A DNA stretch of 64,000 bases from Bdellovibrionales bacterium (GTDB lineage Bacteria; Bdellovibrionota; Bdellovibrionia; Bdellovibrionales; JAUICD01): the NCBI GenBank assembly GCA_965203275.1, contig OZ241865.1, forward strand, positions 2,240,001 to 2,304,000, written 5' to 3'. How positions within the stretch are numbered: position 1 is the stretch's first letter; every line of letters begins with the position of its first letter. Position numbers and translations under genes: made by a program. Under the pieces are notes generated by a model. The model had not been told where the DNA came from. It worked only from the letters and a program-made list of their open reading frames with translations, and made no database searches. This document shows, one piece after another, positions 20,103 through 42,366 of the stretch.

Positions 20103-20115
20103 ATTGTGTTTCCTT

Positions 20116-21290: not shown

Positions 21291-21307
21291 AATATCATCC
21301 TTAAGAT

Positions 21308-21732: not shown

Positions 21733-21734
21733 AT

Positions 21735-22390: not shown

Positions 22391-23974
22391 CTAACTTCGA
22401 CTGATGTCATTAACAAAGGACCAAGACACATCAACACCTTTATTCTCTATATTTTGTATAGTTTTTAATAAGCTAATTTGTGAAAACAATGGCAACCTTT
22501 GAGTTTTTGTTTTTGCAATAATTAGATAATGTACATGAGGCTTTTCAAGTTTTTTTCTAGACAATTTTGTTGTTTTTTCAATACCTTTTATAAATGTTTC
22601 ATCTTTGCTAAGTAATAAAGATAAGGATACATCTCCTTGCTGGAACAAATGACTTAATCCTGATGAACCTTGATGTTTTATTTTGACATGTACAAAATAA
22701 GCTTTTTCATCAGAAGCACTGCATAAAAGGACATCACAAGGTTCTATTTTATCATAGCCACCCATTGGAATTAATTTCTTATCTAAACAATGTGCATTTT
22801 CCCATTTATTGGCCAATGCTTGATTGTATTCTGCTTCATTTTTGTGTTGATAGTCTATAAACTTTTTATCACTCAAATTTTCTTTTTTATATTTGCTTTC
22901 ATTAATTTTTTGTATTTTTTGAGATAATTTTTGATCTATTTTATACCAATAAGAGTTAGACAAATGATATTTTTTTTCTGATATAGAGCAGTCAAAAATC
23001 AAACACTCATAAACAGAGAATCTATTTGATTTACTGTCATTGCTATCAAATAAAATAATGTCCCATTTCTTTAAATTTTCAACATTTAAACTTTCAAGAA
23101 ATTTATCTTTTTGCAATAGTTCATAAAGCTTACTAATATCTAATTCTGTTATTGAATGTTTTTTTCGATTTTTAAAATTAATTTGATAAGAATTTACCAT
23201 TTGAAAATCAATCGGCTTTGGTATATCCAAATAGATATTATCAGATTGATCTTTCAGAAACCTAATTAGCTGATCATCGAGTTGGTTAATGATATCTTTA
23301 TCTTTTACTCTTTCGGTATAAAAAACTTCTGGAAATTCTTTTTCACAGTCTTTTTTCTCATATATTTCATAAAGTTTTTTACATAATTTATCTAAATCTT
23401 CTAGAGGTTGATCAGAATCTATTGTAATAGAATCCGATCCACTAATACTTGAAAATAGATCTTTGTATTTCTGTTTTGTTTTTCCTGTAATGCGTCTTAA
23501 AATATTGGAAAATTTATCTATATCATGTCCTGTAAGACTTGAATCTTGAGTTGTTTGAGTTCTTTTTTGCTTTGAGTGATCAGAAGGGATAAACACATCT
23601 GAACTTTTGATTTTGTCTTTATCTAAGGAGTTTAAAGCTGTCTTTAAACCAAAATCCCCGACAACTTTATTTTTATCTAGTGCGGTGCTACCATATCCAA
23701 AGCAAATAGCAAATACATATTGTGAATTGTAAGGAATGAATAAAACAGCACTTGCATTTGAGGTTTTAATCTCTATTCCTAGATATTTAGACCATAAAGG
23801 TTCAAGAGGTATATTTTTTTTAACAAATAACTTCCAGTTTTTGCCATATTTTTTTTCTTTTGGAACTTTTTCTGGTTTAAATTTGGAATCGTCTTTTAAA
23901 AATTTGGAAAGATCATGTCCTGCCTCTGTCTTTAATAAAACAATAGATAATTTTTGCTTCTTAGTCTTGTTCAT
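22391..23974 (-). CDS. TIGR04141/DUF6119-like sporadically distributed protein with C-terminal PD-(D/E)XK nuclease-like domain
   Basis: FAICFGYG, DFGLKTALN, E..YN, IEPCD...HVK, GLSHLF.QG motifs. Confidence 0.75.
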   Translation of the reverse strand: MNKTKKQKLSIVLLKTEAGHDLSKFLKDDSKFKPEKVPKEKKYGKNWKLFVKKNIPLEPLWSKYLGIEIKTSNASAVLFIPYNSQYVFAICFGYGSTALDKNKVVGDFGLKTALNSLDKDKIKSSDVFIPSDHSKQKRTQTTQDSSLTGHDIDKFSNILRRITGKTKQKYKDLFSSISGSDSITIDSDQPLEDLDKLCKKLYEIYEKKDCEKEFPEVFYTERVKDKDIINQLDDQLIRFLKDQSDNIYLDIPKPIDFQMVNSYQINFKNRKKHSITELDISKLYELLQKDKFLESLNVENLKKWDIILFDSNDSKSNRFSVYECLIFDCSISEKKYHLSNSYWYKIDQKLSQKIQKINESKYKKENLSDKKFIDYQHKNEAEYNQALANKWENAHCLDKKLIPMGGYDKIEPCDVLLCSASDEKAYFVHVKIKHQGSSGLSHLFQQGDVSLSLLLSKDETFIKGIEKTTKLSRKKLEKPHVHYLIIAKTKTQRLPLFSQISLLKTIQNIENKGVDVSWSFVNDISRS

Positions 23975-24289
23975 TCATTTATTCACTTTTATTTAAAGTA
24001 CCATTGGATTTGATCATCTAACCGAGATTTTAAGCAATATTTTTCCTTCATAATTGAAAGATGATGGTGAATTGAGGGTTGTCAAGGTTGATTCAATTAT
24101 TTTTTTCACTTTCTGTAAGACAAGGCATTTTTTCCTTAACATGGTGTTAAGAGACAAGAGGGTCCTTCTCTACTAAAAGGCCTGAGTTTGATAGCCTGCA
24201 AAAATAAAATTGAGTAAAATCAGTACGTTATAAGCCGAGAGAGATTTTATGCCACTAGGATGTAAGCTTTTCATATTGTCATCATAAAT

Positions 24290-24356
24290 AAAACAAAAGG
24301 GCCGTGAGACCCTTTTGTTAAAAAAAACATAGGGACTTAGCAATAGTCCCTATGCT
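24290..24356 (-). terminator. Double hairpin terminator downstream of pilin (second copy at 62488..62552)
   Basis: AACAAAAGGG..CCCTTTTGTT and CATAGGGACT..AGTCCCTATG inverted repeats with A/T runs. Confidence 0.75.
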
Positions 24357-24395
24357 CATCATGCTTAAACTTTAAAATTAAAGGATCGTGTTTCT

Positions 24396-25112
24396 TTATT
24401 GTGTCCCGTCTTCCTCATTTTGCATTACTTTACCACTAGACATAGTCCACTCATCAGTTACAGCACCCCCTATATCTCCAGAGGCCCCTATAATAAAAGC
24501 AATATTGCCAGCACCTCGGACAGAATTATCTATGGCACTAGCTCCAGGTGTTGCTGCAGTAACTATCTGCCCTAAACAACTTGACCTATTTCCAGCTCCA
24601 TCATGCGGATCGCATAAAGTAGTACTCCCGGTGCAGTCGTTTGTGGCAACGGTCCATCCACAATATGTATTTCCTGACGCCTCCACGATTGAAGGCGTTC
24701 CAGCTGTAATACCATAAGCTGTATCGAATGCTTCATGTGTACTTACCTTATCAACATCAGCAGCTGTTTGTGGAAGTGGTCCTCGAAAACCCGCTGGCCG
24801 GGTTATTGTATTTACGTTATTATTGGTAGTGGTTTTTTGAGCTGCCGCCCATCCAGCATTATAAGTTACAGCTCCGTCAGTATTAAAGCCTAACTGTACC
24901 AAACTCGCTGTTCCAACTCCCCATTCAGAAATAAAAGCTATTTCAGTTGCATATATACCAGAAAGAAGTGTCTTCGCTTCTGTTTGCATTGCCCTTCTTT
25001 GGAATTGAGCATATTGTGGAATAGCCACAGCGGCCAGAATTCCAATAATAGCCACGACGACCATTAATTCAATTAAACTAAAACCTTTTTGATTCTTAAT
25101 TAAACGTTCCAT
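24396..25112 (-). CDS. pilA: Major type IV pilin, cassette 1
   Basis: GGAGG RBS then [34 protein letters not shown]. Confidence 0.85.
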
Positions 25113-25131
25113 AATAACCTCCACGGTTTAA

Positions 25132-25340
25132 TTCACTAAAAGTGGTCTAGCCTCTGGCTACTTTTGGGCAATGACCGCAAAGGCTTTCGCCTTTGACAAA
25201 ATGGTCATTGCCTCAAAAGCCTGACCACTTTTAGTAGGAAGGATACTTTCGTTTCTTAACACTATGTTAAGGAAAAAGTTCCTTCTGTTGATTTCCTTTT
25301 CACTCAAAGTAAACCAGCTTCTGGTCACTTTTAGTGAAAC
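25132..25340 (-). repeat. Dispersed structured element inserted upstream of pilin RBS
   Basis: Full reverse copy at 25132..25274 plus a partial copy. Confidence 0.9.
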
Positions 25341-25352
25341 ATTCTAAACGAC

Positions 25353-25769
25353 CTAGTGATTTCAATGACTTAGTACTGTGACTTTTGTATAAAAGTCACA
25401 ATTTGAAAAAGCAAAAAACAGGCAAATTTTTGCAAGAAAATTGTTTTGAAAAATAAAACAAAGCAAAAGTTATAAAACACAAATGAAAAACCATTACTTA
25501 TTTTTCTGATCTTATGTTTTTAAGATTAGTAAAGTGTTTCAAGATGATACAAAAATTTTAAAAAGTGATTCTTTTTGATACAAAATGTCACTTTTTTTGA
25601 TTTTTTTTAACAAAAATATAAAGTTTTATGTCATAATAAACGATAAGAATTGTGTTAGACGAAAAATTAGAAATTTCTAAAGTCGACCTAAAAAAGTCTA
25701 ACAATTACAAACACTTAATACTGTGACTTTTATACAAAAGTTACAGTATTAACTTATTGAAATCACTAG
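25353..25769. promoter_or_regulatory. Pilin upstream region bracketed by 48-bp inverted repeats
   Basis: 25353..25400 versus 25722..25769, 44/48 complementary. Each contains a TGTGACTTTT-N4-AAAAGTYACA palindrome and an IHF-like site. Confidence 0.65.
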
Positions 25770-25829
25770 ATTTCCAATTTTCAAATACCCTTTTCCCTAT
25801 CTTTTAGAAAAATTCCCAAAAGACGAACA

Positions 25830-26383
25830 TCTTGTTTCCCTAACATTGTGTCAATCCGGGATCTGGGATCCGGGATCCAGCAACCCGGCATCTGGTCCTA
25901 GAAATGAACTTTTTCCTTAACATCGTGTTAAAAAACGAGGAGATCCTTTCTACTAAAAGTGGTCAGGCTTTCTAGGTTGCCAGTAGTGATGAAGGAATTT
26001 TTTCCTTAACATGATGTTAAAAAAGGAAGAGATCCTCCCTACTAAAAGTAAACGGACTTTTGAGGCAATGACCATTTTGCCAATGGCAAAAAAAGTGAAA
26101 TAAATATCTTGTTTCCTTAACATGGTGTTAAGAGACAAAGAGATCCTTCCTACTAAAAGTAAACGGACTTTTGAGGCATTGCTCTTTTAATATAATTTTG
26201 AAAGCATTGTGTTTCCTTAACATGCAGTAAAAAAATGAAGAGATCCTCCCTACTCAAAGTGAACAGGCTTTTGAGACAATGACCATTTTGTCAACGGCGA
26301 AAGCCGTTGCGGTCATTGTCCAAAAGTGGCCAGAGGCCAGTTCACTTTGAGTGAAACAGAGGCTAGTTTACTTTTAGTGAAAA
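25830..26383 (+). repeat. Cluster of dispersed structured elements abutting the CRISPR array
   Basis: Several 5' modules and a full copy at about 26213..26355. Confidence 0.9.
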
Positions 26384-28103
26384 CAGTAGGAAGGGTTTTG
26401 ACTTATGCTTATGAAAGTTCCAGGTTTAGTTGCAGGAACTGTTGGTAGAGGAGTTTCAGTAGGAAGGGTTTTGACTTATGCTTATGAAAGAGAGGCTGGA
26501 TGGGAACATTTATTGACGAATTACAGTTTCAGTAGGAAGGGTTTTGACTTATGCTTATGAAAGTTGTTAAGGGATATATTGATGGTCGCTTCTTTACAAG
26601 TTTCAGTAGGAAGGGTTTTGACTTATGCTTATGAAAGCGAATATATTATGCATTTAGATACACTTACAACAGGTTTCAGTAGGAAGGGTTTTGACTTATG
26701 CTTATGAAAGCAAAGAAAGGATGGGCATCGGCAAATCCTTTTTATAGTTTCAGTAGGAAGGGTTTTGACTTATGCTTATGAAAGTTTATACAGGCAACAA
26801 AGCACTAAGACTTAAACGCGTTTCAGTAGGAAGGGTTTTGACTTATGCTTATGAAAGCCGGAAGAGTTGATCAGTATATTTGGGATAAGTTTGTTTCAGT
26901 AGGAAGGGTTTTGACTTATGCTTATGAAAGCTTCCCGTATAGCTTTTTCTGCATTGCTTTATGTTGTGTTTCAGTAGGAAGGGTTTTGACTTATGCTTAT
27001 GAAAGCCTACACACCGCCTTTATGCGTGGTAGTGAAAGGTTTCAGTAGGAAGGGTTTTGACTTATGCTTATGAAAGCTCACAAACGCACTTTCTTTGTCT
27101 TGATCTTGAAAGGTTTCAGTAGGAAGGGTTTTGACTTATGCTTATGAAAGAGACCTTGACGATAGTGATGGCAGTGAAATTGATAGTTTCAGTAGGAAGG
27201 GTTTTGACTTATGCTTATGAAAGTCAGTTCAGTTTACTAAGTTAAATGAGATATTTAGTTTCAGTAGGAAGGGTTTTGACTTATGCTTATGAAAGTGCAC
27301 TTCAAGCGGTCTAATGACCATCTTAGTTTTAGTTTCAGTAGGAAGGGTTTTGACTTATGCTTATGAAAGGAAGAGCCTGGTGATGGTGACTTAACACTTG
27401 CAGGGTTTCAGTAGGAAGGGTTTTGACTTATGCTTATGAAAGGTGATAATTGGTGATGAGATATTGGGTAAGCAATTAGTTTCAGTAGGAAGGGTTTTGA
27501 CTTATGCTTATGAAAGGAAGAGCCTGGTGATGGTGACTTAACACTTGCAGGGTTTCAGTAGGAAGGGTTTTGACTTATGCTTATGAAAGGTGATAATTGG
27601 TGATGAGATATTGGGTAAGCAATTAGTTTCAGTAGGAAGGGTTTTGACTTATGCTTATGAAAGGGGTTTATGATTCCGCAAAAGCTCAAGCTGAAATAAG
27701 TTTCAGTAGGAAGGGTTTTGACTTATGCTTATGAAAGTTAAACCCCGAAGCCGTCGCCCCACATGCAAATAGGTTTCAGTAGGAAGGGTTTTGACTTATG
27801 CTTATGAAAGCAAGGTCAATATGGTAACCTGTTAGGTTCTTAAAAGGTTTCAGTAGGAAGGGTTTTGACTTATGCTTATGAAAGCCAAAGTTAAATAAGA
27901 GACCTAAAGGTACACAAATGTTTCAGTAGGAAGGGTTTTGACTTATGCTTATGAAAGGTTGTATCTCTTTAGTTCTCTTTCCCTCGGTTCCTGTTTCAGT
28001 AGGAAGGGTTTTGACTTATGCTTATGAAAGGTCATTACGACAGCTTTTCTTACAGCTTTACGTATGTTTCAGTAGGAAGGGTTTTGACTTATGCTTATGA
28101 AAG
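26380..28103 (+). CRISPR. Type II-B CRISPR array, 24 repeats (first degenerate) and 23 spacers of 33-37 bp
   Basis: 38-bp repeat GTTTCAGTAGGAAGGGTTTTGACTTATGCTTATGAAAG. The GTTTCAGT start resembles the F. novicida repeat. Orientation inferred from tracrRNA pairing. Confidence 0.99.
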
Positions 28104-28237
28104 GCTTAAAATATCCTACGGATTGCAATGGGTTAGGGGTGATATGATGTGTTATTTTTCGAAGAAAAGTATATTGTAAAAAATATGCTTGATTTTGCGA
28201 AGACATTTTACCACCTCCTACTCATAGCTCTAGTAGC

Positions 28238-28391
28238 CCTATAGTATAAGTTAAATCTTTTAACCACTGTAATCATCTGATGATGTGATCAAATCATATA
28301 TAAATCATATATGATTTGTCATAAACAAAAGAGAACAAAAACTTAAGGGTTTTGTGACCAAGCCACTACCAAAGGTACGCTTGGTTTTTTT
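28238..28391 (+). ncRNA. tracrRNA-like RNA, divergent scaffold, copy A
   Basis: Anti-repeat AGTATAAGTTAAATCTTTTAACCACTGTAATC, then hairpins and an ACCAAGC..GCTTGGT-T run terminator. Confidence 0.7.
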
Positions 28392-28430
28392 ATACTCCTA
28401 TACTTTTCTATCATTGCAATAGTTTAAATC

Positions 28431-28496: not shown

Positions 28497-28518
28497 AATT
28501 GTGTTCAAGGACATTTTG

Positions 28519-28662
28519 TTTCCTTAACATCATGTTAAAAAATGAGGAGATCCTCCTTACTAAAAGTAAACGGACTTTTGAGGCAATCAGCCTTTGATCG
28601 ACGGCAAAAGCCGTCGGGCTGATTGCCCAAAAGCAACCAGAGGTTGGTTTACTTTTAGTGAA
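28519..28662 (+). repeat. Dispersed ~142-bp structured element
   Basis: Full copy between the two tracr-like duplicates. Confidence 0.9.
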
Positions 28663-28741
28663 AATCAGAAAAGTATATTGTAAAAAATATGCTTGATTTT
28701 GCGAAGACATTTTACCACCTCCTACTCATAGCTCTAGTAGC

Positions 28742-28884
28742 CCTATAGTATAAGTTAAATCTTTTAACCACTGTAATCATCTGATGATGTGATCAAATCA
28801 TATATGATTTATCACAAACAAAAGAGAACAAAAACTCAAGGGTTTTGTGACCAAGCCACTACCAAAGGTACGCTTGGTTTTTTT
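28742..28884 (+). ncRNA. tracrRNA-like RNA, divergent scaffold, copy B
   Basis: Near-identical duplicate of copy A (28667..28884 versus 28163..28391). Confidence 0.7.
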
Positions 28885-28954
28885 ATTTCTCTATCATTGC
28901 AACTTAATTGCAATACTGAAAAAGATTGTAGGCAAGCATAGGTTTTTTATACTC

Positions 28955-29533
28955 CTATACTTCTCTGTCATTGCAATAGTTTAAATATTCACATTGTCCA
29001 CATTGATGAGCCGTAGCATCACTTGGTGGTTTGTGGTTATCAAATAGCATTTTAAATATTTTGTCCACAATTAATTTTAACTTTTCACGTTTTTCATTAT
29101 CTATTTCAACGACTTTAAGCTTTCCATCTCCTGTTAAAATAAAACCATGACTTGCTTGTTTACTAAAATGTTTTTCAGCCAACAAAGCATAAGCTAGTAA
29201 TTGCATAATATGACCAGAATTAACTTTCTTGCCTAATTTATATTCAACAGCAAAAACACGATCAGGTGTTTCAATAATCAAATCAGATATGCCATGAAGC
29301 CTTAAAGTTTTATTTTTCAAATTTATATTATGATGTTTGATACCTTCTTTCAGGTGAAATCGAGATAAATTTCTTCTTTTAAATAAAATAGTCTCACGTT
29401 GATGATATGCACCACCTTGCTTTGACCAAAGTGGCTCTAAGGCTTTCATGCCAAGCAGTTCTCTATAATAAACTACTCTAGGACAAAAACACCACTGCCT
29501 TAATAAATTAATAGGTAAATTATAGTCCTCCAT
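28955..29533 (-). CDS. cas4: CRISPR-associated Cas4
   Basis: WCFCPR, GISD..VEYK, C..CEY..YC Fe-S cluster cysteines. Confidence 0.95.
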   Translation of the reverse strand: MEDYNLPINLLRQWCFCPRVVYYRELLGMKALEPLWSKQGGAYHQRETILFKRRNLSRFHLKEGIKHHNINLKNKTLRLHGISDLIIETPDRVFAVEYKLGKKVNSGHIMQLLAYALLAEKHFSKQASHGFILTGDGKLKVVEIDNEKREKLKLIVDKIFKMLFDNHKPPSDATAHQCGQCEYLNYCNDREV

Positions 29534-29837
29534 ACTCTCTCCAGTCTTTAAAATCATTTTTCTGATAACCTACACAAGTTGTATACTTACCAAAATAATT
29601 AATAGCAATAGGTGTGATCAAACATTTATCAGATGGTTCTAACGAATCCTTAACATGCCTAGCAATGGCATTGTATTCTGCCTTTGTTAAAAAGCCCCAA
29701 AACACTGATTTTTGTATAGGGAATAAACCATAATCTCGCAATATTTGAAATAACTTTGTCCTTTTTTTGTTCTCTTCAATGTCATAAGAGATTAAAAACT
29801 CACTTCTTATAGATTTGACAGGCATAATATTCACCAC
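29520..29837 (-). CDS. cas2: CRISPR-associated Cas2
   Basis: LISYDI..NKKR, YGLFPIQKSVFWG. Confidence 0.95.
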   Translation of the reverse strand: MVNIMPVKSIRSEFLISYDIEENKKRTKLFQILRDYGLFPIQKSVFWGFLTKAEYNAIARHVKDSLEPSDKCLITPIAINYFGKYTTCVGYQKNDFKDWREYGGL

Positions 29838-30795
29838 TTAAATAAATAAGGTTTATATTTTTGTCTTTCTTGAAAATAACCGCTTAAACGATAAACCTGC
29901 CTTTGAATAATATTTTCTAATCGCACTTTTTTCTTACGATAAAGATGCCTTTTTGCTAAAACTTTTTGAACTTCATTTATAAGTTCTTTTTTAAGAGATG
30001 GCTCCAGAAACTTTTTATCAGAAGCATTTTGACGTAACTTGATCACAGCACGATCCACAACTTGAGCTCTATATTCTTCCATTAAATCTAAAACCAAAGA
30101 AGGTTTCCCTGGGCGTTGAACATGGTAAAAACCAAGGTAAGGCTCTAAGCCAGCATTCACAATAGCATTGAAAATATAACTACTTAAAATAGCATATCCA
30201 AAGTTCAACATAGCATTGGCAATCTCTTGACTACCACGCCCTTCCCTTGTTTTAAAACTTGATGGCAAAAGTTGACTTTGAACAAGAGCTTGAAAATAAC
30301 TTTTAGAAGCAAAGCCTTCTATACCTAAAAGCCTTGTTATATCTTCACTTCTACTAGCTGTATTAGCTTGCTCTTTAAGGATTTCAGAAGCATCAAATAA
30401 GGCCTGATGTTTATGATATTTGTTTAAATGATTTAAAACTGCACGTTGATTACGTATTTTCCCGTAAACAACTTGACGTGATAAAGCAAGATTTCTTTCA
30501 TCACAAGCCTTGATTTGACCTTTCTTACTGCAACCACTGCATGTTGATGACTTGCTACAAGTCCGCTGTGAGCTACACCCCTAAAATCAAGAAAGAATAA
30601 TTTAATCCCTCTTAAAGTAAAAGATTCTATAAGGTCACTCGAAAAGGTCACCCCACGTTTGGCAATAGACAAAGTCGAAAGGCGATTTAAAGGGAAGATA
30701 TATTCCGAAGGTGATTTATTTTTATTGACTACAACTAGTAAGCCACTACGAATCCCTACATAAGTTCCATAATTAAATATCACTAAATGTTTCAT
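29831..30795 (-). pseudogene. cas1: CRISPR-associated Cas1, split by a single 1-nt frameshift near 30521
   Basis: Adding one A at AGA-AAG-GTC gives a continuous frame: RKGQIKACDERNLALSRQVVYGKIRNQ...LLGIEG...NAMLNFGY...GFYH...LDLMEEYR. Confidence 0.92.
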
Positions 30796-30970: not shown

Positions 30971-31795
30971 TTATTTTAAGGAATTATCATTTTTAAAGAC
31001 AGCCTGCAAAAGAGCTTGTTTGACTTTTTCGTTTAAACTTGAACCTATGTATTCAATGGGTTGATTAATTTCTTTTAATTTGTCTAAATCACTGGTTGTT
31101 CTTGCCTTTGTTAAAGGATCGTTTTGAATGACCTGAATACTTTCATCATTTAATTGATCTATGGGAGTTAATTTTATTTTAGGTCTTGTGACATTATCAA
31201 TTTGATATTCTAGTTTTTTTACAAATGATTTTAACTCTTTGTGATCATCTAAGTTGATATTAATCCAGGAGTCAGGGATATGTTTTATATGATCTTTTTC
31301 AAGAAAAAAATCTTTAGTATCTTTAGTATTCAAGTTTAATTTGAATTGTTTCTTAGAGCGGAAGGGCTTATTGATAACTTTTTTCAATTCACCTTTAGTT
31401 CTATTAATAGCAAAGCTAGAGAATTTATTCCCATCTTTTTTTGAATTAGAATCACTCCATATCTGATATATTGGTTTTTTATTCCAAGAAGTTCTTTTTT
31501 GAAGTGTGTGTCCTCCCTTTGTAGGCACTGGTAAAGAAAACATTTTTCTAACTTTTTGATGTTGATGATATTTTTGATTTTTAAAAATAAGATGATCCTT
31601 TAGAAAATCTTTAAGTGATAATTTAGGGTTTTGATTTCTTTTTTCTTCCCAATCTTTATGTAACCTATACCATTGCTCTTTAACTGGCAAAGTTAATGTT
31701 TTCTTTTCTATTTTAATTTCAAAAGCTTCTTTTTTGATCATTTGAGCTTTGCAGTGTAGCTGATCAGCTATACACTGAAGCTTTTTTAAATCCAA
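30971..31795 (-). CDS. Stand-alone Cas9 C-terminal (WED/PAM-interacting) domain ORF
   Basis: TLPVKEQWYRL, HQKVRKMFSLP, KRTSWNKKPIYQI and YQIDNVTRPKIKL match the FnCas9 C-terminus (recalled). Possible ATG at 31741. Confidence 0.85.
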   Translation of the reverse strand: MDLKKLQCIADQLHCKAQMIKKEAFEIKIEKKTLTLPVKEQWYRLHKDWEEKRNQNPKLSLKDFLKDHLIFKNQKYHQHQKVRKMFSLPVPTKGGHTLQKRTSWNKKPIYQIWSDSNSKKDGNKFSSFAINRTKGELKKVINKPFRSKKQFKLNLNTKDTKDFFLEKDHIKHIPDSWININLDDHKELKSFVKKLEYQIDNVTRPKIKLTPIDQLNDESIQVIQNDPLTKARTTSDLDKLKEINQPIEYIGSSLNEKVKQALLQAVFKNDNSLK

Positions 31796-31907: not shown

Positions 31908-32045
31908 CTTTTTTCATAAGCATAGGTTAAAATTCTTAACCGCTGTAATCATCTAAAAGCATCTTGAACGGACCTCTACATCGCGTACGTCTGCCCTTCT
32001 TAAAGAAGGGATCACTTGCCACCTCTAAAAGGTGGCATTTGTTTT
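31908..32045 (+). ncRNA. tracrRNA, F. novicida-like scaffold
   Basis: Anti-repeat TTTTCATAAGCATAGGTTAAAATTCTTAACCGCTGTAATC, then CATCTAAAAGCATCTTGAACGGACCTCT..ACGTCTG and a TTGCCACC..GGTGGC terminator, as in Fn tracrRNA. TTGATT-17-TATCTT promoter upstream. Confidence 0.9.
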
Positions 32046-32099: not shown

Positions 32100-32336
32100 T
32101 CAACTTGATACATTACGCCAAGCCTTTTTATGAGGTATACGTTTTTGTTTTTTTTGAGATAGACGTCGATCGGCTACCTTAGAAAAATAAAAATCTTCTT
32201 GTAATTCTAAAGCTTGATGAATTAAGTCTAAGCTCAATGTAGAAAGTTTTTGTTGTTTCTTTTGAGATAACTTATCTAATAATAAATAAGTTTGATGGTC
32301 TATTGTTAAATTGATCTTTTTTTTCATAACAGGCAT
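32100..32336 (-). CDS. RHH/CopG-type antitoxin followed by a truncated RelE-like toxin start (MYQVEYLESV at 32113)
   Basis: KINLTID, LDLIHQALELQEDFYF..A..R, IPHKKAW. The overlapping downstream ATG loses toxin-like character after about 12 codons. Confidence 0.7.
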   Translation of the reverse strand: MPVMKKKINLTIDHQTYLLLDKLSQKKQQKLSTLSLDLIHQALELQEDFYFSKVADRRLSQKKQKRIPHKKAWRNVSS

Positions 32337-32433: not shown

Positions 32434-33375
32434 TTATATTTGCTTATTAGGGATGCAAGAGTATTTAGAGGCTTCATATCTTTTAGTAATTTGTTCACAC
32501 CTTGTTTTAATAGAGCAAAATAATTCTTTATCAATTTGAAAGTTTGCTGGTGTAAATAAATCAATCCTTCGATCTTGCCTTATACGTTTTGCTTTAGTAA
32601 TAATTCTTTCTTGGGATTCTTTTGGATCAAACACGCCAATAGTCATCCCTCCTCTGGCTCTCACAAGGGAAAAGGCAGGAATATCTGTATCCCCATCGCC
32701 AATATAAATCATGTTTTCAAATGGACACCATTCTTCCCCTTTAGATACAAAGTCGTCCACCTTGTATGAAGATTGCTTTTTAAAACAGCCCTTTTGGATT
32801 TCAAATAAGGCTCTTGTTTTAGACGTTTTATCCATACAGTAGATAGGGATATTTTTTTCAATTTTTTTAGTCTTTATATCTTTAATAGCTTTATATTTAC
32901 ATCCAAAAAATTGATGAATTAGAGAAGTTTCTTTGTGACATTCAAACACAGAAGATACTAAGTCCTGAAGCCCTGCTGTTATAATAAAATGATGTATGGC
33001 CATATTGTTATCTTGATAGAGTGGTTGAGAGGATAAGTTTTTTATTTCTTTAAGTCCCTTTAAAACATCAGGGTAAAATTTTATTTTATAAGCAATAAGA
33101 CTTTCAAATGTTCCTTTATCATCTAAAGCTATTTTTTTGCCTTGCTGATCTTTAGCTATTTCTGACAAGCGATACATCCAAACAGGAGCTTCACTGGTTG
33201 AGATAGAATCCATTGGTTCTTTTGCATCTACTCCTGATATTTCTTTCACATCTATCCAAAACTGTTTTGTTGCTTTTTTTCCTATAAAAAGTTCAATTAA
33301 CTCAGTTGTAGAATCATTTGAAGTAAGGGTTTTGTCAAAGTCCCAGATTATAGCAATATTGTTTTTTTTATTCAT
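32434..33375 (-). CDS. HAD-superfamily hydrolase
   Basis: WDFDKTLT motif I, IITAGL motif II, KT..LFEI.KG, YIGDGDTDIP motif IV. Confidence 0.9.
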   Translation of the reverse strand: MNKKNNIAIIWDFDKTLTSNDSTTELIELFIGKKATKQFWIDVKEISGVDAKEPMDSISTSEAPVWMYRLSEIAKDQQGKKIALDDKGTFESLIAYKIKFYPDVLKGLKEIKNLSSQPLYQDNNMAIHHFIITAGLQDLVSSVFECHKETSLIHQFFGCKYKAIKDIKTKKIEKNIPIYCMDKTSKTRALFEIQKGCFKKQSSYKVDDFVSKGEEWCPFENMIYIGDGDTDIPAFSLVRARGGMTIGVFDPKESQERIITKAKRIRQDRRIDLFTPANFQIDKELFCSIKTRCEQITKRYEASKYSCIPNKQI

Positions 33376-33388
33376 ATTTAAAACACAT

Positions 33389-33889
33389 TTATTGAGGTGG
33401 TTGATTTGATACTTCTTGCTCTTTTTTTCTCTTTTCTTCTCGCTTGTAAAACTCTTTCCAGTTTTCTTGGACTTGTGGGTCATCCCAAGCTTTCTTATTA
33501 AGCTGTTGAATCCTTCCATAATCAAAAGGCTTTTGAGATGTGTCCATTTCTTTTTGTTTTTCAGCTTTTTCTTTTTGCTTTCTTATTTTTTCTCGCTTGT
33601 AAAACTCTTTCCAGTTTTCTTGGACTTGTGGATCAGCCCAAGCCTTCTTATTAAGTTGTTGAATCCTCTGATAATCAAAAGGCTTTTGAGATGTGTCCAT
33701 TTCTTTTTGTTTTTCAGCTTTTTCTTTTTGCTTTCTTATTCTTTCTCGCTTGTAAAACTCTTCCCAATTTTTTTTGACTTGTGGATTAGCCCGGGCCTTT
33801 TCTTTGAGTTGTTGAATGTTGCTATAATCAAAAGGCTCTTGAGATGTGTCCACTTCTTTTTGTTTTGTGATGGTTGCTACTTTACTCAT
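33389..33889 (-). CDS. Hypothetical protein of three 51-aa tandem repeats
   Basis: 3 x 153-bp repeats (DTSQxPFDY..IQQL..KA...PQV..NW.EFYKRE). GAGG RBS. Confidence 0.75.
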   Translation of the reverse strand: MSKVATITKQKEVDTSQEPFDYSNIQQLKEKARANPQVKKNWEEFYKRERIRKQKEKAEKQKEMDTSQKPFDYQRIQQLNKKAWADPQVQENWKEFYKREKIRKQKEKAEKQKEMDTSQKPFDYGRIQQLNKKAWDDPQVQENWKEFYKREEKRKKEQEVSNQPPQ

Positions 33890-34013: not shown

Positions 34014-37000
34014 TCAAGATGTTTTATTATTTAACAACCACTGTTTTACTTGTGTTGTTTTTGGAATTGTGAACTCAACTGTTACTATATCATCAAATGA
34101 TTTAATTTTAACTTCATTTCGATCTTTAGGAAATTTAAAAGGTTGAGAAAACCACTGAAAATCTGAAGACATAAGATGATAATCGCTTCTATTGGTTTCT
34201 TTTGCTTTTTTAAAATTTTCTTTATCTTCATAGAGTTTAATTTTTCCTTTCCATGAATCTCTCTTAGAAATAAAAGGAATAGAAATTTTACCAATATCGG
34301 CTATATTCATAGTGATCTTTGCATCACATCGACCTGAATCTTTATGCCTAACTTTAGCACATTGAATGCAACTATCAGTTATATCTTTTTGAGATATAGT
34401 CATCCATTCTATGGGTTCAATATTCCAGCTTTGAGGTAATCCTGAATAATGTTTTTTAGGTACAGAGTTTTGACTTAAAATAGTATGGGGCCTATCTTTT
34501 CCTTCAAGTCCATACTTTGCCAATGAATCGTCTGATACTGTTTGAATAATTGTTTTTCTATCCCATGTGTTACGTCTTAATCGAATATTTCCTATTGTTG
34601 TAAGTATAGGCAATGAATATACTTTTTTTACTTTTTGATGTGGATGTTGATGATCTTCTTCACGACGAAATAAAAGACACTGTTGAAGAAACTTTTGCAA
34701 AGATTGATTGGGATCAGTTTCATCAAGCTCTGATTTAAGTTTTTCCCAAGAACTATAAAAAGGTAACAAAATTTTATCTTTACTAATAAACTTTTGATTT
34801 TTCTTTTCTATGATGCACTTACTCCAATTGTCAATAGCATCTTTGACTGTTTGAGGCTCTTTTTTGCCATTTGGTGTGAGTGCTGTTTGGATTTTAGTTT
34901 TGATAGTTTGATAACTTAGACCATCAAGTAATTTAGCTTGCTTTTTTTCATCTTTGTCTGCTTCACGAATACCAATATCCATCAGAAATTCTTGTGCCTT
35001 TTTCTTATTTATAAACCATAATTGATAATTTTCATCTGAAAATTTTGATCTTATCAAAAACTCCTGATCTCTTAATAAGTGAAAATCTTTTTCTTGATAA
35101 GATACTGCATTTTTGGGATGAAATCCTTTTTGTATTGTACCATCATCATTTTGAATCAATGGGAAAAATCTCTCTCCTATACTATTATCTCTATGTATCT
35201 TATAACTGATTTTAATTTGTTCTTTTTTATTTTGACTTAATAATTGGCGATGATGAGTTTCTACTGTGTAAGCTTTTCTTTTTTCTAAACATTTCTCTTG
35301 CAGTTGGTTTGGTGGAACTTTGATTAGATTAAAAATAAGGTTTTTAGTCACTTCACCTGTGCCTCTATTCATAGGCTCTAAATGAATATTTTGATCTATA
35401 TTGAGTTTAAGGCTACCCTCCTTCTTATGTTGATCTACTGCAATGGCAAAAGCTAAAGTAGCGTCTATTAAATGAGAATACGGCTTTTGAGAGTTACCTT
35501 CTTTAGCATAATCTTTGAATTCTGAAATATTAGAATATTTTTCATAATCTTTTCTTAGATCATAAATGCCATCACCTCTTGTATTAGACTGAGCCTCTAC
35601 TCCAAACCAATCAAAGCAAATTTGATCTTGCCAACCAGCACGTTTAGCTTTTTTATAAAAATTATTAGCAAGTACTTGAGCAAAATGTGGTTGTGTCCCA
35701 TTAACAAATGTCTTTGAACGGCTACTAATAGCATCAATGACTTTTTGATGCAATTCATGGTCTGTTAAAAATAAAGCATGTCGAAAAGCCCTCTGCTCAT
35801 CAGAAGTTAAGTTGATCAAGTTAGTGTATTTGCCAAACTTAAAATCTTCACCTTTACCATGACCTATTTGCTCCTCAATCCACTTCATAATCTTTTGATG
35901 ATCTGTTGTACCAAATAATTTTTGTTTGTATTTATTATGTAATTTTTGTATTTGTAAAGGATTGTTTCCTTTTGTCTTTAATTTATCAATACCTTCTAAG
36001 TAATAAACGACTTTATCATCTGTTAATCTTTTTTGATTCTCTGGTTGTTTTTTATTATCTGTATTTTTTGCATTTGGATTTTGATCTTGAGAATCAATAA
36101 ATTTCTCTAACTGTTGATTTGATATTTGCAAAACAGTAGCTAAGTCTTTTAATAACTGGTAACGCTTTTGCCGAGGCTTGTGATTACAATAAGTTAAAAG
36201 ACAATCCCGATCTTCAAATCGACCTGTATCTTCATAGCCTCGCCCTTTAACCAAACGATATCGTGGGTGGATAAATAATCTGCCATCTTTTGCCCTTTGC
36301 CTTAATTTGTAATATTTGCAAAGTAAATGAAGAAATGATTTTTGCTCAAATAAATCATCTGTTTGAAAGTTTGGTGTTGTTTCTAGGTGATCTGGTAACT
36401 CACTCTTTTTGATCACATCTTCTAATTTGCTTTTGGTTTCTGAAATATCTTGGCCATCTCTTTTAAGTTGTTTGATTTTTTTAGCATGGCTAAAAATTTC
36501 ATTGAGGTTTAAAGGATCATCCTTTTTAACTCTATCAAAAATAAATTGCAAAATCCTTGCATCAAGGTTTTTTTGATTTCTCTTATAGGTATCTTTTTTC
36601 AATTGATCAGCTTTTTGATTGTTAAAATATGGCTTCTTTTGACCACTTTGTAGACCTTTTAGCTCACTTTCAAAATCTTCTAAATAATTTTGAGATAACT
36701 CTTTAAGGCTACTTAGCCACTCTTGCCATTGAGGATATTTGCTATCTAAATATACAGGATTAAGAATTAAGCTTTGACAATGAGGAGGACGACGATTGTT
36801 ATTATTTTGATAAGGAGGAATGGTCCATTTAGGGTCTTCTCTAAGCCAAAAGTCAATCACACTGCCTGTTTTGTTTTCTTTATCATAATAAGTTTTCCAG
36901 CATTTTTTTAGTTTGTTATAGTCATAAGCTTCATCTTGGCTTTTGTCTTTGTCTTTTTCTGTCACACGCCATTGTTTATCAAGCCATCTATCAAAATATT

Positions 37001-38393
37001 TATTAAGTCTTTTTTCACACCAATAGTCACCTTCTTGATGCTTGAAATCATTAAAGTATTTTCTGAGAGGTTTTAGTTCTAAATTACTGAGATGACCAAT
37101 TAAGTGGGTAAGGCTCTCAACAGTGAGAGGCTCTCTGTTTGTTGGTTTATATCTTTTTGAATGCAGATTTGAATGCAAATGATCACAAAACACTTTTAAA
37201 AATTTATTTTGCTTCTTTTGTTTTTCAGAATGATTTTTATATTCTAAAACATTTTTAACTTCTTCAAAGTATTTGCTACGATGACGACCACCTGATTTGA
37301 GTTCCTCAAGATTTTGATAGATTGCAAAAGCCAAATGATTCAAATGTGTTTTCTTCCATTCAAGTTTCTTTTTTTGATAGTCATTGTCTTTTGATTCTTC
37401 TCTTTCTGGCTCATCAAAAGCATTTTCTTCTATCTTTTTATCTAAGTCTTTAAAACTTTCTGATTTAAAATTCCAAAAAGAGTTTTTTATCTCCTGATCT
37501 TCTGTATCCGGCTCTGGAAGATGATCTTTTAATTTTTGAATGTTTTCTTTTCTATCTTCTAAATACTTAATGAAATTCATTGTGTTAGAACTAAATGCTG
37601 ACTCTTTGTTTTGCTCTGTTTCATTTTCTTCTTTCCAATGATCCCATTCTTTTAATATTGATGAAAAGAAATCTTGAGTTTGCTGATGAGAACTTTGTTT
37701 CTGCCATTCCTCTATAATCCATCTTGATACATCAGATAATTTTGATTTGTTTTTATTTTGCTTATCTTTGTAATATTTTTGAGGATCTGTACAAAGCTTT
37801 TTAATTTCTTTTGTTCTACTAATGAATACTTGCCTTGAGGCCATTCTGTTAGGTTCTTTATTTATAGCTTCATATATTTTATCTAACTTTTCTTGTCCTT
37901 CTTTAGTCCATTCTTGTATGGCTGTATCAAAATCATAGCCATCTTGATTTTTCTCAACTCCATCTGGTAATTCTTTTGGCAATTCTTCTGGTAATTCATT
38001 ATAAACCTCTGTTGGAAACTGGCTTAAAATTTCAGCATTATACTGCTCTGTCAAAAAACTAAAGCCTCTGCGGTTCAACAAAAAACTAATGGTTTGTTGT
38101 ATGTCAGAATTCCACTCTAAACCAAACCTCTCACACCAAATCAACTTAAAAAGCCTTTTGACCATTTGACGACGGTCAAATCCTCTCTTTTGATGACGTT
38201 GAGCTGTGCGATCTCTCATCAACAATGTATAAGCGTCTTTTTCTAGCTGATAAATCTTACCCTTTTGATTAAGAGAAGTTTTAGAGCTTAACTCTGTTCC
38301 TTCAACATAATGAGCCGTATAAACTCCAGTTGCTTTAGCTCCTAAATCAATAGCAATAGGATGAATTATTTTTTTCTTGCGATTTTGAGACAT
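34014..38393 (-). CDS. cas9: Type II-B Cas9 (Csx12) with internal in-frame deletion of distal REC3, RuvC-II and the HNH core
   Basis: IAIDLG, RTAQRHQKRGFDRRQMVKRL bridge helix, SGGRHRS, LSNLELKPLRKYFND, TFVNGTQ and SHLIDA present. No ITESNAF or DHIIPRS motifs. GGAGG RBS at the 38393 ATG. Confidence 0.95.
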   Translation of the reverse strand: MSQNRKKKIIHPIAIDLGAKATGVYTAHYVEGTELSSKTSLNQKGKIYQLEKDAYTLLMRDRTAQRHQKRGFDRRQMVKRLFKLIWCERFGLEWNSDIQQTISFLLNRRGFSFLTEQYNAEILSQFPTEVYNELPEELPKELPDGVEKNQDGYDFDTAIQEWTKEGQEKLDKIYEAINKEPNRMASRQVFISRTKEIKKLCTDPQKYYKDKQNKNKSKLSDVSRWIIEEWQKQSSHQQTQDFFSSILKEWDHWKEENETEQNKESAFSSNTMNFIKYLEDRKENIQKLKDHLPEPDTEDQEIKNSFWNFKSESFKDLDKKIEENAFDEPEREESKDNDYQKKKLEWKKTHLNHLAFAIYQNLEELKSGGRHRSKYFEEVKNVLEYKNHSEKQKKQNKFLKVFCDHLHSNLHSKRYKPTNREPLTVESLTHLIGHLSNLELKPLRKYFNDFKHQEGDYWCEKRLNKYFDRWLDKQWRVTEKDKDKSQDEAYDYNKLKKCWKTYYDKENKTGSVIDFWLREDPKWTIPPYQNNNNRRPPHCQSLILNPVYLDSKYPQWQEWLSSLKELSQNYLEDFESELKGLQSGQKKPYFNNQKADQLKKDTYKRNQKNLDARILQFIFDRVKKDDPLNLNEIFSHAKKIKQLKRDGQDISETKSKLEDVIKKSELPDHLETTPNFQTDDLFEQKSFLHLLCKYYKLRQRAKDGRLFIHPRYRLVKGRGYEDTGRFEDRDCLLTYCNHKPRQKRYQLLKDLATVLQISNQQLEKFIDSQDQNPNAKNTDNKKQPENQKRLTDDKVVYYLEGIDKLKTKGNNPLQIQKLHNKYKQKLFGTTDHQKIMKWIEEQIGHGKGEDFKFGKYTNLINLTSDEQRAFRHALFLTDHELHQKVIDAISSRSKTFVNGTQPHFAQVLANNFYKKAKRAGWQDQICFDWFGVEAQSNTRGDGIYDLRKDYEKYSNISEFKDYAKEGNSQKPYSHLIDATLAFAIAVDQHKKEGSLKLNIDQNIHLEPMNRGTGEVTKNLIFNLIKVPPNQLQEKCLEKRKAYTVETHHRQLLSQNKKEQIKISYKIHRDNSIGERFFPLIQNDDGTIQKGFHPKNAVSYQEKDFHLLRDQEFLIRSKFSDENYQLWFINKKKAQEFLMDIGIREADKDEKKQAKLLDGLSYQTIKTKIQTALTPNGKKEPQTVKDAIDNWSKCIIEKKNQKFISKDKILLPFYSSWEKLKSELDETDPNQSLQKFLQQCLLFRREEDHQHPHQKVKKVYSLPILTTIGNIRLRRNTWDRKTIIQTVSDDSLAKYGLEGKDRPHTILSQNSVPKKHYSGLPQSWNIEPIEWMTISQKDITDSCIQCAKVRHKDSGRCDAKITMNIADIGKISIPFISKRDSWKGKIKLYEDKENFKKAKETNRSDYHLMSSDFQWFSQPFKFPKDRNEVKIKSFDDIVTVEFTIPKTTQVKQWLLNNKTS

Positions 38394-38836
38394 AAAACCT
38401 CCATAAGGCTCAATATAAGTGCTAAAATCGCTAAGGTATAACAATCTTTATTTATTGTCAAACTCAATCGTCAGACCCATTCATTAAGAGTGACCTTTAG
38501 AGATCTCATGCGAGGGGATCGTGTTTTTCTCTATAATACATCAAATTGTCAGAGTGTTTCTTTAGGAAGTGGTATAGTGGGAGATAATATTCCGGGATCC
38601 GGCATCCGGCAACCCGGCAACAAAATGACAAAAGGAAAAGGAAATAAGGCAGAAAAAATGCGTAAAGACATTATAAATGGTTAGAAAGATTGAAAATATT
38701 TTAAACCTTTTCAAAATAAAATTTGTGGATGCTAAATTTTATAAAAAGATGTTGACAAACAAAATAAAATATGGTTTACAGACAGTTTTTAGTCTACAAA
38801 TAAAAAACAAAAATAAAGCTGTGAATTACTTACATT

Positions 38837-40129
38837 GTGAAAAAGATAATTTTATTACGTCAAGTCATTTTATTATGCATGCTATTTTTGATGGCCACAG
38901 ATGTTGCTGAAAGCCACACAGCAGATCAAATTTGTACTCATGTTCTCATTACAACCGATGATCAAAGGTTGGTTCATCTAAAGAAATATCTTGAAACTTA
39001 TAATAAGAAACCTTTTGACCAACCCAAAACCTCATTAGCAGAAGCCCTCGCAGAAATATTGTTACACATAAACCCTACTTTCAATAGAAAAATACCTTCA
39101 GATGCAACTGTAAAAAGAAATGTCTCTAATAGTACAATTGATGAGTATCAATTTTCAGATGATATTTTCAAACTCTATCGTTATCTTTCTTTTAACAGAG
39201 ATGAAGGTTCTGTACATTATGGAAGATGGCTTTTTTTCCAAATAAATCAAGAGCCTATAGAACATCCACTGGCCACAACTTACAATATACAACATACAGG
39301 TGTTGTGCTAACAATCGAATCCTTAGATAGAAATCTATATCGATATCATCTTTATTATATTGAAGATCAAGGACTTATTTTAGAAACTTTTGATCCTATA
39401 GTAGGGTTTGACTTTTATCTATCTTACAAAATAGACGATATACATATTGTTCTGCCTCATAAACAATCATATTTAAAGAGTAAAATGAAAAAACGTAATG
39501 ATTATTATATCCATTTGAATGAATATTCTATCAATCAAAATGCAAATATTTTTAGAAGAATGTTTAACCATCGAAAAATAGAGGATAACTATCAATTTAT
39601 ATCCTATGAGAATAATGAAAAAGAAATTGTTCCAGGTAAGATTCTTAATATTACAAGTCGTGTGACAGTTAAAGGTTTAATGGGCATTTTCTCCTTAGAC
39701 AACAGAGAAGAACTCAATAGTGTTTGGGTAGATGAAATATTGGGTGAAATTCTTATAACTTCTTATTTTTCAGAAGATAAAAATAAACCTTTTGACCCTT
39801 ATGCATTTATGAAGCCTCTGCCTCCTAAAAAGCCTCTTGATTATTATAGTGCTTTTAGATTTGCAAAAATTTTTCAATCAGGCCATTTAAAAGAGGATGA
39901 ACGTTTTATTTCTTATCCTATATCTCATCCAGATGGTCAAAGACGTATTGCTCAAATTATTCAGTGGGATGAATATCAAATGCAACTGATAGAATACAGA
40001 GGCAATGGAAAACCTTTTGTATTTAATCGAATTATATTATCAAGTAAACTTTTAGATAATATAACAATCAGTCGATATGCTAAAGAATATTTTACTCAAG
40101 TGGACTTTAATCGTTACTTATTTCACTAA
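38837..40129 (+). CDS. Secreted hypothetical protein
   Basis: 430-aa ORF with signal-like N-terminus. The stop codon is supplied by a dispersed element end. Confidence 0.65.
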   Translation: MKKIILLRQVILLCMLFLMATDVAESHTADQICTHVLITTDDQRLVHLKKYLETYNKKPFDQPKTSLAEALAEILLHINPTFNRKIPSDATVKRNVSNSTIDEYQFSDDIFKLYRYLSFNRDEGSVHYGRWLFFQINQEPIEHPLATTYNIQHTGVVLTIESLDRNLYRYHLYYIEDQGLILETFDPIVGFDFYLSYKIDDIHIVLPHKQSYLKSKMKKRNDYYIHLNEYSINQNANIFRRMFNHRKIEDNYQFISYENNEKEIVPGKILNITSRVTVKGLMGIFSLDNREELNSVWVDEILGEILITSYFSEDKNKPFDPYAFMKPLPPKKPLDYYSAFRFAKIFQSGHLKEDERFISYPISHPDGQRRIAQIIQWDEYQMQLIEYRGNGKPFVFNRIILSSKLLDNITISRYAKEYFTQVDFNRYLFH

Positions 40130-40485
40130 AAGTGGTCTGACCTCTGGTCACTTTCTGGTTGCCAGCCGAAGGCTTTCGCCTTCTCAAATGCTGGCAACCT
40201 AGAAAGCCTGACCACTTTTAGTAGGGAGGATCTCCTCGTTTCTTAACAGGATGTTAAGGAAACAAAATGCTTTCAAAATTATATTAAAAGAGCAATGTCT
40301 CAAAAATCCGTTTATTTTTAGTAGGGAGGATCCTCTTGTCTCTTTACACGATGTTAAGGAAACAAGGCGTTTGCTTCACCCTTGCCTGATGCCGAGTTGC
40401 CGGTTTAGCTCACTAAAAGTGGTCTAGCCTCTGGCTACTTTCTGGCAATGACCACGATGGCTCTCGCCGTCGATCAAAGGCTAAA
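40122..40485 (-). repeat. Cluster of dispersed structured elements
   Basis: Full reverse copy at 40122..40261 plus partial copies. Confidence 0.9.
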
Positions 40486-41959: not shown

Positions 41960-42039
41960 TACCAATTCTATAAAGCCACGTATTTTTTTGACTCTTTTAA
42001 AGCTGTGTTTGCATTTTGACATCAATAGAATGAGAGAAA

Positions 42040-42366
42040 GGAGGATCTTCTCGTTTTTTAACGTGATGTTAAGGAAACAGAGCTTTATTCGCAAACTGCT
42101 TGCTCTTGAGGCAATAAAAGAAATTTTTCCTTAACATGGTATTTATCCGGGATCTGGGATCCGGCAACCCGGCAGTCAGGCAAGGGTGAAGCAAACGCCT
42201 TGTTTCCTTAACATGGTGTTAAGAAAAGAGGAGATCCTCCTTACTAAAAATAAACGGATTTTTGAGGCAATCAGCCTTTGATCGACGGCGAGAGCCGTCG
42301 GGCTGATTGCCCAAAAACAGCCAGAGGCTGGTTTACTTTTAGTGAAATAGACCATTTTGAGTGAAA
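42040..42366. repeat. Cluster of dispersed structured elements with GC-rich CCGGGATC module
   Basis: Full copy at about 42204..42346. Confidence 0.9.

Follow-up and report, generated by a model that had tools for sequence, protein, structure and literature searches.

Can a Cas9 that has lost both of its nuclease active sites still serve the bacterium that encodes it, or is such a gene simply disappearing? The question is raised by cas9A, a type II-B cas9 gene in a CRISPR locus. The locus lies in a 64,000-nucleotide stretch of a Bdellovibrionales genome (GenBank assembly GCA_965203275.1, contig OZ241865.1, positions 2,240,001 to 2,304,000), hereafter called the window. Its product, Cas9A, is either a natural Cas9 that binds DNA without cutting it or the product of a gene early in decay, and we judge the two to be close to even. 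The parts of the gene on which the argument turns are as follows.

34014 to 38393, minus strand: Cas9A, a type II-B Cas9 of 1459 aa counted from the ATG at 38393.
38346 to 38348, minus strand: the RuvC-I catalytic aspartate D33, kept, placed by alignment.
35972 to 35973, minus strand: the deletion junction LKT/KGNN, T824/K825 in open reading frame (ORF) numbering.
35655 to 35969, minus strand: the orphaned HNH tail and L2 helix, with F876L, R899H, R919P, and Y920H.
35463 to 35474, minus strand: RuvC-III H991 and D994, kept, placed by alignment.

The whole ORF (34014 to 38444, minus strand) would encode 1476 aa if started at TTG. In a phmmer comparison with FnCas9, two stretches of the protein matched (query residues 27 to 787 and 822 to 1309) and nothing between them did. 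FnCas9 numbering (PDB 9ehf) was reached by aligning the full-length Cas9 of genome G003 as a bridge and then Cas9A; it is sound because the alignment returns the residues Q717, K788, S792, Y794, Q798, and N812 of PMC12231574. Cas9A joins the equivalents of K708 and K998, with residues 709 to 997 (289 aa) missing; the deletion amounts to ∼263 aa relative to P0002, the nearest full-length protein, and to 270 aa relative to G003 Cas9. The segments gone are the REC3 clamp, distal REC3, RuvC-II, L1, and the HNH core, including, at alignment-counted positions, C814/C817 (CxxC), the RuvC-II glutamate E898 (ITESNAF), and HNH H969 and N995. Retained are D33, H991, D994, C556, and C753, each invariant in the homologs covering the position; C556 and C753 are presumably the other half of the zinc site. 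A tblastn search did not find the missing middle elsewhere in the 2.57-Mb single-contig genome. These results bear out an earlier sequence-only reading of the window, which had described an in-frame loss of RuvC-II and the HNH active site near 35972, a skip of ∼280 to 290 aa, and the survival of the RuvC-I D and RuvC-III H..D. Because the HNH core and the RuvC-II Glu are absent, Cas9A must, to judge from its sequence, be able to cut neither DNA strand, as that reading had also inferred.

PF21069 matches Cas9A with 323 bits (cutoff, 27), PADLOC calls it Cas9b (E, 1e-113), and TIGR03031 gives 379 bits, slightly below its 399.4 cutoff. Cas9A is thus recognized as Csx12/Cas9b while lacking a complete RuvC (I, II, and III), the HNH active site, and the REC3 clamp; by sequence, it is a descendant of type II-B without three defining nuclease features (RuvC-II, HNH, and clamp). 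With type II-B Cas9 (FnCas9; PDB 5b2o, 9ehf; PF21069/TIGR03031) it shares RuvC-I, the bridge helix, REC as far as the clamp, the HNH tail, RuvC-III, WED, and PI, and its locus shares cas1-cas2-cas4, a canonical trans-activating CRISPR RNA (tracrRNA), and an array oriented opposite to the cas genes.

Might the middle of cas9A simply have been collapsed or dropped during assembly, an outcome that the sequence-only reading had named as refuting it? The 90% cluster of Cas9A has two members: P0121, identical to the protein of the window and found on 2 contigs, and P0001, a second haplotype from another assembly with the same deletion plus T770A, on a 61,662-bp contig. Seven runs from three studies contain 0.73 to 0.99 of the cas9A words, one of which runs may be the source, and four of them (X6, X7, X8, and X11) were compared with the window over cas9A. 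In X7, a separate sample, record 21 bridges the junction (35838 to 36126, 289 nt, depth 7.8, 0 differences) and reaches 135 and 154 letters to either side of it. One X6 contig stops exactly at 35972, which could stem from a full-length allele; the stop is ambiguous because X6 also breaks elsewhere, at known single-base variants; position 35973 is third in its codon and closes an A4 run. X8 (labelled sponge metagenome) contributes pieces of 172 to 343 nt with 0 to 4 differences, in the 5′ half of cas9A only, and X11 contributes short pieces only. T770A is seen in X7 and X8 too, and the frame is open in both haplotypes and over the stretches that X6 and X7 cover. With the junction crossed in X7, the deleted protein encoded on the 61,662-bp contig, and the missing part nowhere in the genome, an assembly artefact is very improbable.

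We next ask how far the deletion extends beyond this species. Both flanking motifs were present in 95 of 121 proteins (P0121 and the best 120 of 206 matches); they lie 464 to 563 aa apart in 93 of the 95 and 237 aa apart in Cas9A. The set was widened by a profile-free search of 50% representatives (best 150 of 158 matches), and 231 proteins of at least 600 aa were examined. Both flanks of the junction are matched by 192 of these, and 189 of the 192 carry 218 to 342 extra residues. Of the remaining three, two are this allele and one is P0312. The latter, an 843-aa II-B Cas9 on a 1.82-Mb contig, has lost two other, larger stretches in frame, one covering most of REC and one running from REC3 into HNH, and retains RuvC-I, RuvC-III, WED, and PI. 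An alignment search yielded 54 related loci (44 + 10), overlapping with loci from genomes of the class; 49 match both flanks, and the middle is kept in all 49 (213 to 326 aa). Within the class, PF21069 is present in 13 of 390 genomes. The other 12 comprise nine full long-clade frames with the HNH motif, one short-clade frame of 1398 aa, one cas9 cut by a contig end, and one split gene. A single-protein locus search in genome contigs confirmed no locus.

The Cas9A junction was thus found in no other II-B Cas9 among the proteins, loci, and class genomes examined. Nor is there a conserved clade of inactivated Cas9 among the homologs, since the junction occurs in one 90% cluster of 2 members. The nearest full-length relatives are 53 to 58% identical (for P0002, 53% on one side of the junction and 55% on the other), and G003 cas9 is 65% identical to cas9A in DNA. 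With no shared junction and relatives this distant, the allele is therefore known from one species: a search of related genomes recovered the same allele in a second haplotype and no diverged relative. As a separate observation, locus L075 (7974 to 12026) encodes a 1351-aa II-B Cas9 with all catalytic motifs, ∼190 aa shorter than P0002 in the REC2 region, a candidate compact form of the long clade.

Has selection kept the frame open? The reading we favor, at just short of an even chance, is that Cas9A, a II-B Cas9 left with neither clamp nor nuclease activity, went on working as an RNA-guided binder of DNA and was maintained by selection in that role for a time once the deletion had occurred. 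The open frame of 1459 codons in two haplotypes supports retention. A further clue comes from conserved residues. We aligned 148 full-length homologs, added the two halves of Cas9A, and scored 200 columns conserved at ≥90%, excluding the junction-adjacent residues 811 to 825; 36 columns fall in the HNH tail/L2 helix, 134 in RuvC-I/bridge/REC, 15 in RuvC-III, and 15 in WED-PI. F876L, R899H, and R919P each occur in 0 of 148 homologs and Y920H in 1; X6 record 10 and X7 record 20 show the same letters. Never-seen residues thus number 3 in the 36 HNH-tail/L2 columns, and the remaining 164 hold none (Fisher P = 0.009 when the comparison is with the 134 RuvC-I/REC columns). At least three never-seen residues in this region occur in 2 of the 148 homologs, both with 6 to 7 elsewhere, and three occur there in 0 of the 104 homologs that have at most one elsewhere. 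When any 36-column window is allowed, 2 of 148 homologs show three with none outside, and 15 of 148 show three regardless of the rest. From 3 changes in 84 sites, neutral drift since the deletion, acting on the whole gene, would be expected to have produced ∼10 nonsense and 11 conserved-REC changes, and 0 were observed; at the lower bound the expectation is 2.0 nonsense and 2.4 REC changes, with a 0.012 chance of none. That never-seen substitutions appear confined to the orphaned HNH tail/L2 lends some, though indirect, support to a kept binder.

A W-to-Y change left of the junction, which had seemed novel, is present in 7 of 148 homologs and was set aside. Among the variants in the runs, the dense X7 clusters at 36137 to 36162 and 36248 to 36289 were left out of the polymorphism count as probably another organism's Cas9; the variant V639A is likewise doubtful, its contig being short and loose-ended.

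The position of the left break offers a structural parallel. It falls at residue 709, one residue ahead of the REC3 clamp (710 to 801), a hallmark of II-B (PMC12231574). In DNA-bound, nonproductive states of FnCas9, the clamp and HNH are unresolved, as is RuvC in one map; depending on the state, the maps lose density for HNH plus much of REC3 or RuvC (PMC12231574). When FnCas9 acts as a repressor with the small CRISPR-associated RNA (scaRNA), the R-loop is 14 bp long and the clamp is undocked (PMC12231574; PDB 9n6t). By analogy, the match between a break at the clamp start and the parts undocked in the repressing state would lend some support to DNA binding by Cas9A. AlphaFold2 was run on Cas9A and on a G003 control with the same 41 homologs. 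The control model has a RuvC-II strand (846 to 854), a RuvC-III strand (1056 to 1064), and a single long helix (1011 to 1049); R919P lies within this helix, unbroken in the full-length control, a point in favor of retention. The Cas9A model is confident for the REC helices and the RuvC-I strands and shows disorder at the junction. Global scores do not discriminate (pTM, 0.40 versus 0.42; Foldseek TM, ∼0.3 for both), and the comparison draws on local features only. Structure prediction, which the sequence-only reading had proposed as a check, thus returned confident REC and RuvC-I and, relative to the control, a disrupted RuvC sheet.

How would such a protein work? With the HNH core and RuvC-II Glu missing, neither strand can be cut. 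By sequence, tracrRNA A, described below, is able to form a duplex with the repeat of the array, and the genome encodes RNase III. The bridge helix, REC1/REC2, proximal REC3, WED, and PI would load the dual RNA and read the protospacer-adjacent motif (PAM). Without the REC3 clamp, only a short, PAM-proximal R-loop would form, as in the nonproductive scaRNA-repressor state of FnCas9. Cas9A might then occupy matching invader DNA and block transcription or replication in the manner of the binding-only Cas12c and Cas12m. More specifically, and at somewhat less than even odds, one deletion at the REC3-clamp hinge could have made Cas9A a permanent FnCas9-like repressor that carries out cut-free silencing of invaders, resembling CRISPR interference (CRISPRi), through an ordinary array, which would make it an immune effector of type II that acts by binding only.

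The surroundings of cas9A, in which such guides would have to be made, are listed next.

33389 to 33889, minus strand: a 166-aa protein with three 51-aa repeats, directly after cas9A, of no family.
32434 to 33375, minus strand: a HAD-like gene of the PADLOC candidate defence family PDC-S34 (E, 1e-45).
32100 to 32336, minus strand: an antitoxin-like ORF of 78 aa, compared with its cluster member P0128.
31908 to 32045, plus strand: tracrRNA A, of canonical II-B form with a terminator; duplex with the repeat, −37.3 kcal/mol.
30971 to 31795, minus strand: the Cas9B remnant, the C-terminal portion (274 aa) of another II-B Cas9, placed by alignment.
29831 to 30795, minus strand: cas1, split, one base lost near 30520.
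29520 to 29837, minus strand: cas2, by profile match.
28955 to 29533, minus strand: cas4, by profile match.
28236 to 28395 and 28740 to 28886, plus strand: two anti-repeat copies (B), 504 bp apart.
28104 to 28240, no strand assigned: a probable leader, cas4-proximal, by analogy with G001, G003, and G011.
26380 to 28103, plus strand: the CRISPR array, with 24 38-nt repeats, 23 of them identical, and 23 spacers, 21 of them distinct.
25130 to 26380, no strand assigned: a cluster of an abundant ∼150-bp repeat element that abuts and clips the distal CRISPR repeat.

The type II-B adaptation module (cas1, cas2, and cas4) is present. Three cargo genes stand between cas9A and cas1, along with a tracrRNA and what is left of a second Cas9, a difference from known type II-B Cas9; the sequence-only reading had overlooked the second Cas9. 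That reading had called both the array and the tracrRNAs intact. The array does have its 24 repeats, with the distal one clipped by the repeat element; one tracrRNA is canonical, and the other two of the three anti-repeat copies are not. The 3′ half of tracrRNA A is as in related loci (30 canonical copies in 54 loci). The B copies form a repeat duplex of −22 kcal/mol, and their 3′ half is noncanonical and strongly folded (z, −5.2 and −3.7), a form seen in 0 of the 54 related loci. RNase III is intact in the genome, and Rfam gave no match in the window. It supports retention that canonical tracrRNA A seems to have outlived the deletion of most of neighboring Cas9B, with the 24-repeat array and RNase III in place.

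The Cas9B remnant is 36% identical to Cas9A, 51% to P0253, and 82% to the 503-aa P0252. It starts with a stretch like the pre-RuvC-III helix and then makes an in-frame jump of ∼300 aa at a repeated IKKE, an apparent in-frame deletion of its own to judge from P0252 and P0254. The frameshift in cas1 that had been reported earlier is real in this assembly, and the split products occur on 2 contigs; an intact allele exists (P0133, 321 aa, 99% identical) on an 11,421-bp contig, and the contig of P0252 is also 11,421 bp long. The simplest history of the locus would be an exchange of Cas9 in place, followed by the loss of Cas9B; in-place Cas9 exchange is documented for II-C (PMC12669027). Separately, P0252 and the Cas9B remnant, nearly identical as far as KIKLT (5 differences over 191 aa), part after it into different C-terminal tails, which suggests that the PAM domain may have been exchanged between strains.

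A second CRISPR locus of the same genome, of type V (L042; G000:C1:235349-246070), has two back-to-back Cas12a-family genes and a short array. One gene encodes an intact 1325-aa protein with the RuvC D/E/D motifs; the other encodes 982 aa, without the first ∼315 aa; and cas4 and cas1 are fused by an internal deletion. Two cluster mates of the intact 1325-aa gene are split in other assemblies.

These neighbors give force to a second explanation, that cas9A is in early decay: a recent short-homology deletion, in frame by luck in a CRISPR-shedding lineage, would have left an idle protein that has not yet gained stops. We regard this as a serious possibility, if somewhat under even. The same locus holds Cas9B at 274 aa, a split cas1, and a clipped array end, and the same genome holds the joined type V cas4/cas1 and the shortened Cas12a. 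Junk Cas9s gain in-frame deletions, as in P0312 with its two and most of REC gone, and cas9 is split or truncated in at least 5 of 54 related loci and cas1 broken in 3 of 54, some perhaps through sequencing errors. Both ends of the junction are A-rich and alike in G003, the RuvC fold is disturbed in the AlphaFold model, and single variants are mostly nonsynonymous. Compared with X6, X7, and X8, coding variants stand at 9 nonsynonymous to 1 synonymous once two dense clusters (19 of 29 differences) are excluded, though most of the nonsynonymous ones rest on one low-depth contig each. Under decay, the odd residues near the junction could be older lineage quirks or could have arisen with the deletion. 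Left unexplained are why the never-seen substitutions all lie in the orphaned segment, with REC, RuvC-I, and RuvC-III untouched and no stop, and why the allele occurs in both haplotypes and, at 0.92 to 0.99 of its words, in runs from three studies. Simple decay, entered as a caveat by the sequence-only reading, therefore gains from the second Cas9 remnant, the split cas1, and the damaged type V locus and loses from the untouched REC/RuvC and the lack of a stop.

What might the array have directed Cas9A to? None of the 21 distinct II-B spacers match the chromosome. Self-targeting was considered as the cause of inactivation and rejected: the one strong genome match (spacer 3, 26/27, G000 245324) falls on a spacer in the type V array and not on a target. 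The first type V spacer overlaps II-B spacer 3 at 26/27, and in related invaders the two cover one and the same coding region. Protospacer searches gave nothing usable with the whole array against 50,697 phage records, with one 22-mer against viral contigs, or with the array against 384 genomes of the order; with no protospacer, no PAM was derived. The pattern of the CRISPR repeat was not found in metagenome contigs. For a scaRNA-like solitary repeat, no repeat copy lies outside the array at ≤6 mismatches, and 746 genome sites with a repeat-like start held no convincing half repeat. The 3′ seeds of the 21 spacers gave 18 12-mer matches, against 16 expected from internal words, a count at chance level.

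The spacers also bear on a third explanation, in which the former locus had two Cas9s and Cas9A became a helper or regulator, losing its nuclease while Cas9B still cut. It could then have chosen PAM-flanked spacers for Cas1-Cas2-Cas4 or served as a CRISPR RNA (crRNA)/tracrRNA sink damping Cas9B, with no silencing of invaders by Cas9A itself. We consider this improbable. Type II-B has Cas4 among its genes, and this protein may carry out PAM selection on its own; the wholeness of Cas9B beside a deleted Cas9A is itself conjectural. Moreover, 0 of 21 spacers are self-derived, whereas II-A adaptation without interference yields many self spacers (PMC4335292).

Returning to the proposed DNA binder, several points weigh against it. 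The deletion is, on the sequences compared, confined to one species, with no diverged relative carrying it. The right break falls mid-HNH and takes the RuvC-II strand with it. The Cas9A model has no RuvC-III strand, unlike the G003 control, and its L2 helix is broken around R919P (pLDDT of <50 at model residues 890 to 904); the long gap in the Cas9A alignment may itself reduce AlphaFold2 confidence. In deletion scans of SpCas9 and SaCas9, the large deletions tolerated in REC, HNH, and RuvC-III have their limits at domain ends, and those in the available portions of MISER (PMC8476515) and SABER (10.1101/2025.08.12.669962) did not span RuvC-II. The selection signal consists of 3 to 4 residues in a region drawn after the residues were seen, and softer measures give a weak signal: identity to the consensus (z, −2.2) is equally low in 5 of 148 homologs and as low in 18% of matched pairs; and the terminal branch is long in REC as well (rank 2 of 46). 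The searches made found no protospacer, PAM, scaRNA, or self-target, and the CRISPR genes all around Cas9A are visibly decaying. Because the surrounding locus is now eroding, any function of Cas9A may be fading in this strain. The sequence-only proposal of a natural, catalytically dead Cas9 (dCas9) thus draws some support from the placement of substitutions and the FnCas9 cryo-electron microscopy (cryo-EM) states and is weakened by the lack of a diverged relative or a target and by the decaying neighbors.

The remaining features of the locus touch less closely on this choice. The PDC-S34 gene also adjoins cas9 in 2 of 54 other loci (L062, 4357 to 5355; L079, 6587 to 7429). The 166-aa repeat protein had no family match and no meaningful match in the Atlas. 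P0128, the cluster member of the antitoxin-like ORF, runs on into a partner resembling RelE, which this locus lacks (the likeness to RelE is our reading, with no family match). Array spacers 14 and 15 recur exactly as spacers 16 and 17 (27370 to 27625). The ∼150-bp element has 1038 blastn matches genome-wide, and further copies lie at 28512 to 28663 (between the two anti-repeat copies), 40118 to 40482, and 42031 to 42353; a resemblance between the element and the CRISPR repeat's 5′ end was discounted, its pairing with the tracrRNA being weak (−7 to −9 kcal/mol). From its sequence, the stretch from 19497 to 25124 (minus strand) appears to be a type IV pilin-like gene cluster with prepilin N termini.

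Set beside known systems, Cas9A has partial parallels. The FnCas9-scaRNA repressor (PMC12231574; PDB 9n6t) is alike in the predicted short R-loop, unengaged clamp, inactive HNH, and repression without cutting. In FnCas9, however, an active enzyme is switched into this state by a special small RNA, whereas in Cas9A it would be fixed by the deletion, and neither a scaRNA nor an endogenous target was found for Cas9A in the searches above. Cas12c (V-C) and Cas12m (V-M) likewise have a dead nuclease beside an array, with interference proposed by binding alone (PMC12669027); they are many-member Cas12 families, whereas Cas9A is a one-species Cas9 allele inactivated by a large deletion. The II-C2 phage Cas9 with an inactive RuvC (PMC12669027, PMC10910872) is another natural nuclease loss and a possible crRNA sink; it is phage encoded, keeps HNH, and has no array, whereas Cas9A is chromosomal, is of type II-B, has lost both sites, and has an array. 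Engineered deletion dCas9s (MISER and SABER) still bind DNA with REC3 and HNH deletions; the regions they report include no continuous REC3-RuvC-II-HNH deletion, and II-B was not scanned by them. In its available portions, the 2025 classification gives binding-only interference for Cas12 subtypes and, for type II, only the phage II-C2 Cas9 with a dead RuvC (PMC12669027). A literature search from which subscription papers were mostly absent found no natural Cas9 lacking both sites by deletion.

If Cas9A does not bind DNA, the locus is a well-documented snapshot of an in-place Cas9 swap and loss. If it does, cut-free defence extends to type II, and the locus marks a deletion that the SpCas9 and SaCas9 laboratory scans, in their available portions, did not report. 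It would then also put to a direct test the idea, suggested by the cryo-EM states, that II-B binding can dispense with the clamp, RuvC-II, and HNH, and would provide a naturally occurring design for a II-B dCas9 of reduced length needing neither clamp, RuvC-II, nor HNH.

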